From contig CAMOYT010000001.1 of assembly GCA_946630315.1 (NCBI GenBank), positions 895 through 64,894 of the forward strand: a stretch of 64,000 bases of DNA, given 5' to 3'. The position numbers and the translations under genes were made by a program. Below the pieces are notes generated by a model, which saw only the letters and a list, made by a program, of their open reading frames with translations, did not search any database and had not been told where the DNA came from. Shown here one piece after another: positions 29,745 to 35,775 of the stretch. Positions within the stretch are counted from its first letter, which is position 1; every line of letters begins with the position of its first letter. Source of the stretch: an uncultured Bacillota bacterium (lineage in GTDB: Bacteria; Bacillota_I; Bacilli_A; RF39; UBA660).

Positions 29745-32700
29745 TTGGTGATTAGTATGCTTATATATATTTTGCATAATGATAAATTTTATACTTTTCG
29801 TTTGCCAAAGAATGTATTTGGAGACTATGTTTTACATGATTATGATTCTAATGATTTTAAACGAAACCTTGTTAATGTCTCTAGTGTAGATGGTAGTTGG
29901 TACATCAATTCTAATATGAATGTTAGAATTATGGTCAATAATCAATATGTAGAGAATTGTAAATTAGAATATTACTCATATTACATGCTTGTTACTAGCC
30001 AAAATGAAAGAATCTTGGTTTATTGTATGCCAGGATATGAAGATAGTTATATTACTAAAACTATTGTACAAGAAGGAGCTTTTGTTGTCGGCAGAGATAC
30101 TTCTTGTGATATTGTTTTTAATTCACCTAATATTAATCCTAAACAATTAGAGTTTACTTATAAAAATAATAAGTGGCTTGTCAAAAACTTAGGTGAGAAT
30201 ATTCCATTATATAAAAATGGTATACGTATTGTTAGTGATTATTTAGATGATTTTGATACTTTATTTATAATGGGATTAAAGATATGTATTTGTGGTAAAG
30301 TTATTTTTATTAATAATTCACTAAATAATGTTTCTGTTAAGACACAATTACTTGCTGATACTAGAGATGAATTAGTTACTGCTACATTTGATAGTAGTGG
30401 GCAAGTTTATAAAGACTTTTATAATTCATCAGATTATTTTTCTAAATCCCCAGTATTTTTAAAGAAGATAACTCCTTTAAAAATGATTATTACACCACCA
30501 GATCCTAAAGAGAAAAATGATGATTCTAGTTTATTAATGTCTATTGTACCATCTGCTTTGATGAGTTTGACTTCACTTCTTAGTGCATATTTCTCTGTTA
30601 GTAATTTCTCTAAAGGTAATACTGATAAAGAGTCTTTAGTTACTACAGTTATTATGTGTGTTATTATGCTATTCTTATCAATAGTTTGGCCTTTTGTAGA
30701 AAGATTTGCTGATAGAATACGTAGTATTGTTAAAGAACATGTACGTAAGAAAGTATATAGAAAATATTTACACAAAAAAGAGGAAGTATTAAAGGCTGCG
30801 ACTAATGAACAAAAGTTAGCTTTAGTATTTAATAATCTTAGTTTGGTTGAATGCCAAGATATTATTAAAAAGAAGAGTGCAAATCTTTATAGTTTAAATG
30901 TTGAACAAGATCAATTCTTAAAAGTAAGACTTGGTGTTGGTAATGTTAGATTAGAATCTGAAATAGATTATCAAAGACCAGATTTTGTAAAAGATAAAGA
31001 TAATTTATTAAATGATATTGATTTATTACTTGAAAAGTATAGATATATAGAAGATGCTCCATATGTATTTTGTTTAAAAAATAGTATAGCATTTATTAAT
31101 AGTAGTAATGACTTTGATAAATATTTGAATGCTATATTATTGCAACTTGTTACTTTCCATGATTTTAATAGTTTAAAACTAGTAATATTTACATCAGATA
31201 ATTCTAAACTTAATAATATTAAAAATATTAATCATTGCTTTAATGAAGATAGAAGTGTGAGATATTTTGCAACTAGTATGCAAGATGCTGAAACTTTATC
31301 TAGTCAAATGATTCGTATATTTAATAATAGAATAGATGAGAATGATCCAGAGAATAATATTCAAAGTCCATTCTATTTAATTGTTAGTGATGATATTGAT
31401 AGATTTAAGAACTTAAAGATTATGGAGAAAGTTCTTCATAATAAAAAGGGTAATGTTGGATTTAGTGTTTTAGCTTTTTGTAATAAACTTACGGATATAC
31501 CAGATGGTTGTAATTACTTTGTTGAATATACTGATAAAGAAGCTACTTTATTCCAATCTGAGATGGAAGAGAAAAATATTATGAAGTTTAGACCTGAGTT
31601 TATTACTCCAGAGGTTAATTTCAATGATTGTATTAATACAATTGCTAATATACCTATTAAATTAAATAGTGATGGTAGTCAATTATTACCTGAAAAGTAT
31701 GGATTCTTAGAAATGTACAATGTTGGTAATGTTAATCAACTTAATTCTATTAGTAGATGGAAGAATAGTCAGATTACTAATTCTTTAGCAGCTCCTATCG
31801 GTATTGATACTAGTAATAATGTTCTTAGTTTGGATTTACATGAAAAGAAACATGGACCACATGGTTTAATTGCTGGTATGACTGGTTCTGGTAAATCAGA
31901 AACTATTATTACATACATCTTATCTTTAGCTGTTAATTATAGTCCTAAAGAAGTTCAATTTGTTTTGATTGACTACAAAGGTGGAGGTTTAGCCGGAGCT
32001 TTTGAAAATAGAAAGACTGGTGTTAAGTTACCTCACTTAGTTGGTACTATTACAAACCTTGATAAAGCTAGTATGAATAGAACTTTGGTATCTATTAAGA
32101 GTGAGTTACAAAGAAGACAAAAAGTATTTAATGAAGCAAAAGAAAGATTAAATTCTGGTGTTATTGATATTTATAAGTATCAGAAATTAGTTAGAGAGGG
32201 TTCTTTAGAGGAACCAATGAGTCACTTATTTATTATTTGTGATGAGTTCGCTGAGTTAAAAGCACAACAACCTGATTTTATGGATGAGTTAGTTAGTGCT
32301 GCTCGTATTGGTCGTTCTCTTGGTATTCACTTGATACTTGCTACTCAAAAGCCTAGTGGTGTTGTTGATGATCAAATTTGGTCAAATGCTAAGTTTAAGA
32401 TTTGTTGTAAAGTACAAACTGCAGAAGATTCAAAAGAAATGCTTAGACGTGATGATGCGGCATATATTAAAGAGAGTGGTCGTTTCTATTTACAAGTAGG
32501 TTATGATGAAATATTTGTAAAAGCTCAATCTGCTTATTCAGGAGGAGCATATGTTCCACTTGATACAGTTAATCTAAATAAAGCTGGAAATGAAAGTATT
32601 GAGTTTATTGATAATTTAGGTAATGTTATTAAAAGTACTAAGATGTTGAAGACTGAGGTTTTAGAGAATGAAGACTTAGGTGATGAATTAAACAATGTTT

Positions 32701-34310
32701 TAAAATACTTAGTACAATGTGCTGATGAGTTAGGAATTAAGAATAAGAATTTATGGCTTGATAGTATTTCTGATCATTTATATATTTATGATTTATTTAA
32801 GAAATATCCTACTAAAGCTCGTAAGTATGTTATTAATCCTTTAGTTGGAGAATATGATGATCCAGCTAATCAAGCACAAGGACCAGTACAACTTAACATA
32901 TCTGAGAAGGGTAATTTATGGATTAGTGGTGTATTTGGTTCTGGTAAAACGACTTTGATGGCCACAACTATTTATTCTACTATTATTAATCATGGTAGTG
33001 ATGAAGTTAATATATTTATTATTGATTTACTTGCTGACTCATTGAGAGTATTTACTAAGGCACCACAAGTTGCTGATTATGTATCTAGTGCCGATCATGA
33101 CAAGTTAAATAAATTATTCCATTATTTAGAACATGAAGTAGTAAGACGTAAGAAGTATTTTGCTGAGAGTGGAGAGGTATTCTTAAATGAAGTTAGAAAA
33201 GGTAAAGCACCATTCCCAAGTATTTTAGTATTCTTAAATGGAATGGATGTATTTATTGATCAATATGATGATTTATTTAATGAGACTTTTGAACAAATAG
33301 TTAGAGATTGTAACAGAGTAGGTATTTACTTTATTGTTACATCAACTGGTTATTTGAGTTCTTCAGTTGAGAGTAGTTTCTCTCAAAAGATTGCTTTAAG
33401 ATATAATGATAATTCTGAATATCAAACTATATATAATGATACTAGAGGTATTATTCCTGCTACTAATGCTGGACGTGGATTAGTTGAATTAGATGTAGTT
33501 TATGAATTCCAAACAGCTTTAATATTTGATGATGCTAGATATGAATATAATTTAAATTATGTATTTAATAAATTAGCTAGTATGTTACCTAAAGCTAAAG
33601 GTATTCCTATTATGCCTAGAATTGTTAATTATGAATCTGTAAAAAATGATATTGTAACTATAGATAGTGTTCCTATTGGAGTAGAAATGTCAAGTAACTG
33701 TACATATAGTTATGACTTTAGTCATTTAATAAATATGGTTATAGCATCAAATGATAAGTTAAATGTTAGTTTTATGGGTGCATTGATTAAAGTTATGAAG
33801 AGACTTGATAATACTAAGATTATCGTATTAGATTCACTTGAATTTGATGAAAAGATTGAAGATGTTCAAATATATAATTCTAATTTTAAGGGATTATGTG
33901 CGGCTTTAAAGAAGAATATTGAAGAGAAGAAGAGTGCTGATCCTAATGCTGAAAAGATTATATTTATGATTAGTGGATATAAGAAGTTACAAAGTCATTT
34001 GAAAGAATTAAAGAAAGAAGATAGTGATGTTGTTACTATTGATGATTTGATTATTTCAAGTATTGGTGCTGAAAACTATAAGTTTATTATATTTAATAGT
34101 AGTTCACTTAGTAGTATTGATAACTGTGAGTGGAGTGATTATGTTGATGGTGGTAATGGTATTATTCTTGGACTTGATCCAGAAGATCAACATATTATTG
34201 ACTATGAATCTAGTTATGAAGAAATGAAGTTTACTAAAGATACAGCAGTTGTTGTTGTAGATGGACGTAAGAAGAATATTAAATATATTAGAAATAGGAG
34301 TCGTGTATGA
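29745..34310 (+). CDS. essC: Type VII secretion (T7SSb) FtsK/SpoIIIE-family ATPase EssC/YukB-like. The likely true start is ATG 29757.
   Basis: N-terminal FHA-like region, two TM helices (~aa 265-320), then three P-loop domains. Two Walker A boxes: GLIAGMTGSGKSE and WISGVFGSGKTT. ~1520 aa. Confidence 0.8.
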   Translation: MVISMLIYILHNDKFYTFRLPKNVFGDYVLHDYDSNDFKRNLVNVSSVDGSWYINSNMNVRIMVNNQYVENCKLEYYSYYMLVTSQNERILVYCMPGYEDSYITKTIVQEGAFVVGRDTSCDIVFNSPNINPKQLEFTYKNNKWLVKNLGENIPLYKNGIRIVSDYLDDFDTLFIMGLKICICGKVIFINNSLNNVSVKTQLLADTRDELVTATFDSSGQVYKDFYNSSDYFSKSPVFLKKITPLKMIITPPDPKEKNDDSSLLMSIVPSALMSLTSLLSAYFSVSNFSKGNTDKESLVTTVIMCVIMLFLSIVWPFVERFADRIRSIVKEHVRKKVYRKYLHKKEEVLKAATNEQKLALVFNNLSLVECQDIIKKKSANLYSLNVEQDQFLKVRLGVGNVRLESEIDYQRPDFVKDKDNLLNDIDLLLEKYRYIEDAPYVFCLKNSIAFINSSNDFDKYLNAILLQLVTFHDFNSLKLVIFTSDNSKLNNIKNINHCFNEDRSVRYFATSMQDAETLSSQMIRIFNNRIDENDPENNIQSPFYLIVSDDIDRFKNLKIMEKVLHNKKGNVGFSVLAFCNKLTDIPDGCNYFVEYTDKEATLFQSEMEEKNIMKFRPEFITPEVNFNDCINTIANIPIKLNSDGSQLLPEKYGFLEMYNVGNVNQLNSISRWKNSQITNSLAAPIGIDTSNNVLSLDLHEKKHGPHGLIAGMTGSGKSETIITYILSLAVNYSPKEVQFVLIDYKGGGLAGAFENRKTGVKLPHLVGTITNLDKASMNRTLVSIKSELQRRQKVFNEAKERLNSGVIDIYKYQKLVREGSLEEPMSHLFIICDEFAELKAQQPDFMDELVSAARIGRSLGIHLILATQKPSGVVDDQIWSNAKFKICCKVQTAEDSKEMLRRDDAAYIKESGRFYLQVGYDEIFVKAQSAYSGGAYVPLDTVNLNKAGNESIEFIDNLGNVIKSTKMLKTEVLENEDLGDELNNVLKYLVQCADELGIKNKNLWLDSISDHLYIYDLFKKYPTKARKYVINPLVGEYDDPANQAQGPVQLNISEKGNLWISGVFGSGKTTLMATTIYSTIINHGSDEVNIFIIDLLADSLRVFTKAPQVADYVSSADHDKLNKLFHYLEHEVVRRKKYFAESGEVFLNEVRKGKAPFPSILVFLNGMDVFIDQYDDLFNETFEQIVRDCNRVGIYFIVTSTGYLSSSVESSFSQKIALRYNDNSEYQTIYNDTRGIIPATNAGRGLVELDVVYEFQTALIFDDARYEYNLNYVFNKLASMLPKAKGIPIMPRIVNYESVKNDIVTIDSVPIGVEMSSNCTYSYDFSHLINMVIASNDKLNVSFMGALIKVMKRLDNTKIIVLDSLEFDEKIEDVQIYNSNFKGLCAALKKNIEEKKSADPNAEKIIFMISGYKKLQSHLKELKKEDSDVVTIDDLIISSIGAENYKFIIFNSSSLSSIDNCEWSDYVDGGNGIILGLDPEDQHIIDYESSYEEMKFTKDTAVVVVDGRKKNIKYIRNRSRV

Positions 34311-35745: not shown

Positions 35746-35775
35746 TTAAGTGAACAGTTGTTCACTTTTTTTGTG
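35746..35775 (+). terminator. Rho-independent terminator ending the essC operon.
   Basis: gtgaacagttgttcac hairpin plus T7. Confidence 0.75.

Follow-up and report, generated by a model that had tools for sequence, protein, structure and literature searches.

A five-gene locus with a T7SSb-type EssC and a ubiquitin-like protein in uncultured gut Bacilli, a candidate compact type VII secretion module

The locus analysed here lies at positions 29745-35775 of a 64-kb stretch of DNA (64,000 nucleotides, in the following the window) from an uncultured Bacillota bacterium of the RF39 lineage. It encodes EssC, an FtsK/SpoIIIE-type membrane secretion ATPase of type VII secretion systems (T7SS), together with four small proteins. 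The window has a G+C content of ~27% and a strongly positive GC skew, and nearly all of its genes are located on the + strand. Five consecutive open reading frames (ORFs) of 1521, 83, 123, 126 and 101 codons are found on this strand exactly where they had been predicted. The features of the locus are as follows.

28963-29744, + strand: upstream non-coding region of essC, 782 nt (promoter/hairpin consensus scan, Rfam)
29745-34310, + strand: essC, FtsK/SpoIIIE-type membrane secretion ATPase (NCBIfam TIGR03928, Pfam, PDB)
34307-34558, + strand: gene of an 83-aa ubiquitin-like protein of YukD/EsaB type, by model (AlphaFold2, Foldseek, relatives)
34610-34981, + strand: gene of a 123-aa hyper-acidic protein (composition, family alignment)
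34988-35016, + strand: possible internal promoter, TTGACA, 17 nt, TATTCT, with TG (consensus scan only)
35047-35427, + strand: gene of a 126-aa basic protein, the long partner (family alignment)
35440-35745, + strand: gene of a 101-aa basic helical protein, the short partner (family alignment, AlphaFold2)
35748-35775, + strand: intrinsic-terminator-like hairpin, AAGTGAACA-GTTG-TTCACTT plus T-run, ending the operon

The five genes are real, since the module is present on 17 metagenome contigs that encode all five proteins with identical sequence and, in diverged forms, in many species. Their ribosome-binding sites are good to strong. For the components of the T7SSb systems of Staphylococcus aureus (Ess) and Bacillus subtilis (Yuk) we use the corresponding names EssC/YukB, EsaB/YukD, EssB/YukC, EsaA/YueB, EssA/YueC and EsxA/YukE.

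EssC and its ubiquitin-like partner

EssC comprises 1521 aa if translation starts at TTG 29745; gene callers choose GTG 29748, and ATG 29757 is also possible. The protein matches the NCBIfam model TIGR03928 ('type VII secretion protein EssC') with 875.6 bits, the cutoff being 778.4, and the match spans positions 4-1293 of the 1296 in the model. Pfam reports an FHA domain at residues 114-164 and two FtsK_SpoIIIE stretches, and a hydropathy scan places two transmembrane (TM) segments at 263-281 and 295-322. The resulting layout, consisting of an N-terminal FHA domain, two TM helices, a DUF/stalk region and three ATPase domains (D1-D3), confirms the architecture proposed in the original prediction. 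Among solved structures, YukB of B. subtilis from the T7SSb core complex 9qks comes first (E 4.4e-111), ahead of actinobacterial EccC proteins, with DNA translocases far behind. As it passes the NCBIfam equivalog and has YukB as its best solved relative, the protein is an EssC of T7SSb type.

By our reading, the FHA motif (...NINPKQLEF...) seemingly lacks the phosphothreonine-binding Ser and His. This matches the reported absence of both residues from the FHA domain of T7SSb EssC (PMC11217815).

Conservation was evaluated in an alignment of 78 full-length orthologues. D1 is near-invariant in its Walker A (GMTGSGKSE) and Walker B (LFIICDEFAELK) motifs and D2 keeps GSGK, while D3 is degenerate and the C-terminal domain is highly variable. 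Such a pattern indicates an active EssC and no relic.

The start of the 83-aa gene overlaps the stop codon of essC as ATGA and is preceded by an AGGAG Shine-Dalgarno sequence, in agreement with the proposed translational coupling of the two genes. The encoded protein had been called YukD-like from its sequence, and this first guess is corroborated by a structural model and by relatives. An AlphaFold2 model built with 13 homologues shows a beta-grasp fold (pLDDT 85.7, pTM 0.76). Foldseek against the PDB returns the ubiquitin-like (Ubl) domains of EccD from ESX-5 and ESX-1 on top (7npt_D8, E 1.3e-4; 4kv2, TMq 0.72), then ubiquitin, NEDD8 and SUMO. A profile search in 1.84 billion representative proteins yields 444 relatives. 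Pfam YukD (PF08817) is matched by 42 of the 118 relatives that were scanned individually (best E 1.3e-7), and no other Pfam family by more than 7 of them. The copy in the window itself has no Pfam, NCBIfam or PDB sequence or profile match, and the family is very small (14 clusters among 5.8 billion in a word-seeded search). The protein ends in ...KVLLK, without a C-terminal Gly-Gly. Based on the beta-grasp model, the EccD Ubl matches, the YukD-matching relatives and the position of the gene, the model-supported assignment is that of a YukD/EsaB-type subunit. The YukD protein of B. subtilis lies clamped by the FHA and DUF domains of YukB, and assembly depends on it (PMC12637312). By analogy, we infer the same role for the 83-aa protein on the EssC described here.

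Search for further components in the window and in related loci

Related loci were collected by an EssC scan with one genome per GTDB species. The scan gave 80 loci, 81 including the window, which were read with 10-kb flanks and whose ORFs were called, clustered and mapped. In the 64-kb window the proteins of the locus, their neighbours and all ORFs not assigned by eye were scanned, the remainder having been assigned by eye as housekeeping genes.

All 80 related loci come from uncultured gut Bacilli, with EssC identities of 33-58%. They are labelled as Bacilli, Tenericutes, Mollicutes, Erysipelotrichaceae, Clostridium sp. CAG:451 and CAG:245 or Candidatus Coprovivens. The nearest named relatives are deposited as 'MAG: Bacilli bacterium' and 'Bacillota bacterium', and no relative stems from a cultured isolate. 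EssC and the ubiquitin-like protein form the sole constant pair across these loci; an orthologue of the latter was called at 70 of the 81, in most directly after essC. The window subclade adds a cassette which occurs in two gene orders and encodes two helical proteins, one long (~120-150 aa) and one short (~90-105 aa), together with a hyper-acidic one.

The original prediction had noted no EsaA, EssA, EssB or WXG100 EsxA within ±15 kb, and the EssB, EsaA and WXG100 models indeed match none of the scanned window proteins. The sole trace of EssA is a sub-threshold match (22.1 vs 32.45 bits) in a 682-aa membrane protein at 42679-44727, 8 kb downstream. FliL, PknB-linker and FtsH models score alike on the same charged-plus-TM stretch, hence the EssA match is probably compositional. 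The 682-aa protein is predicted to be single-pass; its N-terminal region is charged and its extracellular part large. It adjoins a C39-like peptidase and a 179-aa protein that is lipoprotein-like by its N-terminus.

Likewise, the scanned neighbour families of the 80 related loci include no EssB, EsaA or EssA, and no predicted membrane-protein family adjoins essC in more than 4 of the 81. Two neighbours of 976 and 443 aa in loci L069 and L077 were considered as EsaA and EssB, and rejected; the former is an SMC protein and the latter has no match. Pfam assigns the recurrent neighbours to housekeeping genes, ribosomal and RNA-polymerase genes among them, and to ABC ATPases, a HerA/DUF87 ATPase and DUF4176. 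A 211-aa WXG100-domain protein also occurs among the neighbour families (36.6 bits, above the Pfam cutoff).

Several genomes carry two essC loci, both without canonical partners. The two essC genes stand in tandem in L038 and L051 and in separate loci in L018/L032, L026/L035, L019/L076 and L020/L084, each duplicate having its own ubiquitin-like gene. An ATPase of ~585 aa similar to HerA/DUF87 and FtsK is encoded just upstream of essC in L042, L046, L052, L053 and L060 and nearby in L051 and L083. In the closest relatives (L009, L010, L012, L014, L016, L023, L029, L033 and L034) the module is situated within the conserved rplKAJL-rpoBC region, between rplL and a methyltransferase-rpoB-rpoC block (position ~10000-17000 of each). 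L10 leaders lie upstream in 5 of 6 loci scanned. In the window the module lies between glyQS/sipW and infC.

Two alternative explanations have to be weighed at this point. A split canonical T7SSb, with essB, esaA, essA and a true esxA elsewhere on the chromosome, would suit an EssC which passes the T7SSb equivalog and keeps its FHA region, the part of B. subtilis YukB that contacts EssB/YukC (PMC12637312). Our inspection covered the window and the 10-kb flanks, and the second, separate essC loci named above would also fit. We nevertheless regard it as unlikely. Characterised T7SSb systems are known to cluster these genes with essC (PMC11217815), and yet none of them adjoins essC in any of the 81 loci, not even where a genome has a second essC locus. 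Moreover the host genomes appear small, one locus being situated on a 1.2-Mb circular contig.

That the locus is the decaying remnant of a T7SSb which lost its membrane partners and secretes nothing is in our view highly improbable. The missing essential parts and a host lineage that seems genome-reduced are what such decay would produce, but 78 full-length orthologues retain an intact 1520-aa ORF whose catalytic motifs in D1 are near-invariant, and the small genes keep strong ribosome-binding sites. In addition, the module and its synteny are conserved between species whose EssC identity is 33-58%, and in close relatives it resides within the rplL-rpoB region.

Three small proteins and the regions flanking the operon

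The 123-aa protein contains 45 Asp and Glu residues (37%, where ~35% had been estimated) and has a net charge of about -41. Its GTG start codon at 34610 follows a strong AGGAGG Shine-Dalgarno sequence. Pfam and NCBIfam give no match for it. Its homologues, aligned from 19 species and 80-130 aa long within the window subclade cassette, share three features. A 'D-x-M-P-E-E-L-K...L-N' motif is followed by a linker that is acidic and probably disordered, and the C-terminus reads '...D-L-(D/N)-x-(L/I/M)-F' with an invariant terminal Phe. For the 123-aa protein the conserved motifs are 'D-x-M-P-x-E-L-K...(F/L)-N' and, at the C-terminus, '...(F/L)-x-N-L-F-COOH'. As a control, metagenomes were searched with the motif of the acidic protein itself, using an alignment of four sequences. 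In all 12 loci recovered the gene order is acidic, long, short, with EssC and Ubl upstream wherever the sequence reaches far enough in that direction. The acidic protein is a real, conserved component. It is confined to the subclade, whereas EssC and Ubl are general.

In 11 species the net charge of the acidic protein ranges from -17 to -41, and most of its helical partners are basic, with a pI of about 9-9.7, a few being near-neutral or acidic. Canonical EsxA proteins are acidic. Some W-x-G proteins of sister loci also have a Phe-ending tail (...DIQF, ...GIEF). The charge complementarity with the helical pair and the Phe-ending tail together suggest, by analogy, an escort or targeting role of the acidic protein, which is the least secure part of our model.

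Both remaining proteins are basic with a pI of 9.6. The 126-aa protein is probably helical, and Pfam returns only sub-threshold coiled-coil matches for it, including YwqH-like (E 0.003). Its family alignment shows an invariant N-terminal G-K-W-x-G and a central L-K-N-H-x-x-T-G-K. Here the G-K-W-x-G occupies residues 8-12, with W-S-G at 10-12, outside the predicted helical core; the W-x-G is thus in an unusual place near the N-terminus. In the proteins encoded at its position in sister loci, the central T-(K)-G motif is kept only loosely. The 101-aa protein has neither a Pfam nor an NCBIfam match, and its family shows an invariant A-Y-(D)-G at residues 61-64 (Y-D-G at 62-64). In word-seeded searches among 5.8 billion, the two families comprise only 13 (126 aa) and 28 (101 aa) clusters. 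An AlphaFold2 model of the 101-aa protein (pLDDT 75.9) consists of helices at 15-36, 50-61 and 63-100.

The two proteins had been described as all-helical and lacking a central WXG motif. Indeed neither has a central W-x-G, and a helical fold is modelled for the 101-aa protein, but a lack of any relation to WXG100 proteins is probably not the case. Short proteins from sister loci contain a clear central W-x-G, e.g. AYWNGEDAKAWF and SWYGNKAANKWY. A MAFFT alignment places Y62-D63-G64 of the 101-aa protein in the W-x-G column of these sister proteins; the same column includes S. aureus EsxA. An intermediate member of the 101-aa family in L026 reads AYYNG. A W-x-G at the centre is present in 55 of the 403 small ORFs of all loci, as compared to 4.1 +/- 1.9 after shuffling, and in 45 of the 81 loci such an ORF is found within 3 kb of essC. 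Since the sister equivalents show W-x-G at their centre and the 101-aa family has an invariant Y-x-G in that column, the helical proteins are probably related to WXG100. By size, position and motif the 101-aa protein appears WXG100-like, a membership without statistical support.

The profile searches yielded no such support. With hhalign, both helical families were compared to every small-protein family of the related loci and to three canonical WXG100 sequences, with nothing significant in either case. Searches of PDB sequences with the three small proteins, singly and as profiles, returned noise only (a designed repeat protein, TsaE, SMC coiled coils). No protein of the cluster passes the WXG100 family model, and the EsxA candidates are named by size and position. 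However, sister proteins with an evident central W-x-G also miss the Pfam WXG100 model. In this lineage the model hence lacks sensitivity, and the missing match carries little weight.

The original prediction had left room for an EssC-driven machine with another job. Such a machine might export the acidic polypeptide by threading it, as a DNA-like polyanion, through its FtsK-type motor, or it might handle nucleic acid, with the helical proteins in structural or regulatory roles and not as T7 substrates. EssC is indeed a member of the FtsK/SpoIIIE translocase family, a conserved partner as extreme in charge as the acidic protein is not known from described T7SS, and the helical proteins of the window fail every WXG100 test. 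Still, EssC is far closer to YukB and EccC than to DNA translocases, a ubiquitin-like partner is a T7SS hallmark, and sister loci encode W-x-G proteins, a WXG100-domain protein and DUF4176. Moreover, the acidic protein is present in the subclade only while EssC and Ubl are general. We consider a different job of this kind improbable.

The 3' boundary of the operon is clear, owing to the hairpin and T-run after the last gene and the T-box of the next one. The hairpin (35748-35767) has an 8-bp stem with 3 G-C pairs followed by a T-run; the terminator is plausible but not 'strong' as had been claimed. The T-box leader at 35821-36013 (105 bits, Rfam) belongs to the downstream gene at 36070-37518, which encodes a beta-eliminating lyase resembling tryptophanase or tyrosine phenol-lyase. 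Its specifier was read from the Rfam alignment as UAC (Tyr). A Tyr-sensing T-box on a lyase of degradative type suggests that the enzyme may make or salvage tyrosine. Within the operon, the putative promoter at 34988-35016 could separately raise the expression of both helical-protein genes.

The complex region upstream of essC, also part of the original prediction, is indeed present. Its 782 nt show sigma-70-like promoter matches at 28959-28986 (11/12) and 29339-29367 (10/12), two AT-rich hairpins each followed by a T8 run (~29305-29340 and ~29652-29685) and a repeated motif AGAGAA(A/G)GAAAACTCT. No Rfam family reaches its gathering score in this region; the only sub-threshold match is the orphan PGK RNA motif RF03040 at 29541-29634 (34.9 vs 50.8 bits). 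A scan of the essC leader and six related loci with Rfam gave no common RNA element but only L10 leaders and sub-threshold PGK RNA. The region may represent a leader/attenuator, or a small RNA followed by a leader.

Two paralogous clusters are found at 25585-28208, just upstream of essC, and at 54424-57977. Each encodes a secreted protein of 187-191 aa with an N-terminal TM/signal segment and no family match, which we read as TasA/camelysin-like, and a SipW-type signal peptidase of 378 aa whose N-terminal domain is long and polytopic. In each a membrane protein is encoded downstream, of which the first copy matches DUF5305. The upstream TasA-like, SipW, DUF5305 and amidotransferase genes were considered as part of the system and ruled out, as they are unlinked to essC in other species.

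Comparison with known systems and proposed module

Like T7SSb, the locus has an EssC with FHA, two TM helices and three ATPase domains. Also shared are a free-standing ubiquitin-like protein that lacks a Gly-Gly end and is encoded right after essC, and small proteins of ~100 aa encoded alongside, the modelled one being helical. Unlike T7SSb, there is no EssB pseudokinase, EsaA or EssA in the locus, the scanned window proteins or the scanned neighbour families of the 80 loci, and no protein of the locus passes the WXG100 model. Where T7SSb has a single acidic EsxA homodimer, the locus encodes a basic (pI ~9.6), non-identical helical pair, and the conserved hyper-acidic protein is an addition.

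Garrett, Higginson and Palmer (2024) defined T7SSc-j from RefSeq genomes and found EsxA-, EsaB- and EssC-type proteins to be a near-universal core, with other parts varying by subtype (PMC11217815). Their survey does not cover the uncultured lineages considered here. Most similar in outline are T7SSg and T7SSf, simple Bacillota variants around TsxA (WXG100), TsxB (ubiquitin-like) and TsxC (ATPase); T7SSg shares a non-identical WXG100 pair and T7SSf an ATPase with FHA domains (PMC11217815). In contrast to our locus, T7SSg has an ATPase without FHA, the DUF5050 beta-propeller protein TsgL and adjoining Tad pilus genes, and T7SSf a PPM phosphatase, a DUF6382-FHA protein and the AAA+ ATPase TsfV (PMC11217815). 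None of the domains specific to T7SSg or T7SSf was detected in the scanned window proteins or in the recurrent neighbour families. A literature search found no paper on this arrangement or on the acidic family.

Two different small helical proteins encoded side by side are also known from EsxA/EsxB (ESAT-6/CFP-10) of T7SSa. CFP-10 ends in a short hydrophobic tail with a final Phe (...LSSQMGF), which binds EccC. A comparable tail is found here on the acidic protein. Unlike in CFP-10, it is carried by a separate and largely acidic protein, the hydrophobic spacing differs and no YxxxD/E motif is evident; docking on EssC is put forward by analogy.

Taken together, the locus probably represents a compact, T7SSb-derived type VII secretion module with EssC and Ubl as the sole dedicated machinery and the three small proteins as cargo or co-factors. 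Of the two possibilities in the original prediction, a minimal or divergent T7SS with non-canonical substrates is the one favoured by the T7SSb-type EssC, the Ubl partner and the lack of EssB, EsaA and EssA at 80 related loci. Since these three are found neither at the locus here nor at those of ~80 related species, the best reading is a T7SSb-derived variant with EssC and Ubl alone that is not among the published T7SSa-j.

In the proposed mechanism, the 83-aa protein would sit between the FHA and DUF domains of EssC and stabilise its oligomer, as suggested by the YukB-YukD structure, and the channel would be built from the TM helices of the oligomer, 12 in the case of a hexamer. The 126-aa and 101-aa basic proteins might act as an EsxA/EsxB-like pair, the latter being a putative WXG100 derivative in which W has turned to Y. 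The hyper-acidic protein would escort or neutralise this pair and may supply in trans the C-terminal Phe-ending signal that docks on an ATPase domain of EssC, as CFP-10 does on EccC. We put forward more tentatively, as a possibility rather than an expectation, that EssC and the YukD-like protein are a complete and self-sufficient translocon across the clade, a minimal T7SS occurring in nature, with the acidic protein as trans-acting targeting adaptor or charge-neutralising chaperone which delivers the basic pair via its Phe end.

Several points weigh against the proposed module. Secretion in S. aureus and B. subtilis does not work without EssB, EsaA and EssA, and these could be encoded elsewhere, as our reading is confined to the window and the 10-kb flanks. 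The roles proposed here for the acidic protein draw on composition, conservation and analogy. The 101-aa and 126-aa proteins have no PF06013 match at E <= 1 in Pfam, and the PDB profile search finds no EsxA. The structure prediction provides a helical 101-aa protein but no link to a WXG100 fold, with 0 Foldseek matches. Moreover, this model of modest confidence puts the main loop at residues 37-49 and a mere kink at Y62; the loop is Gly/Lys-rich and aligns as an insertion. Comparison with the sister W-x-G proteins using hhalign reaches a probability of 1.6%, the best local alignment being exactly the Y-x-G/W-x-G segment.

The composition of the T7SSb channel and its indispensable parts are open questions in the field. 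If the compact module is as proposed here, a lineage that keeps EssC and the ubiquitin-like subunit alone would point to these two as the minimal translocon, and a five-gene system would be small enough for reconstitution. It would extend known type VII diversity (T7SSa-j) to uncultured, genome-reduced gut Bacilli which RefSeq surveys have missed, and add a new conserved accessory family, hyper-acidic with a Phe end and paired with unusually basic WXG-like proteins.

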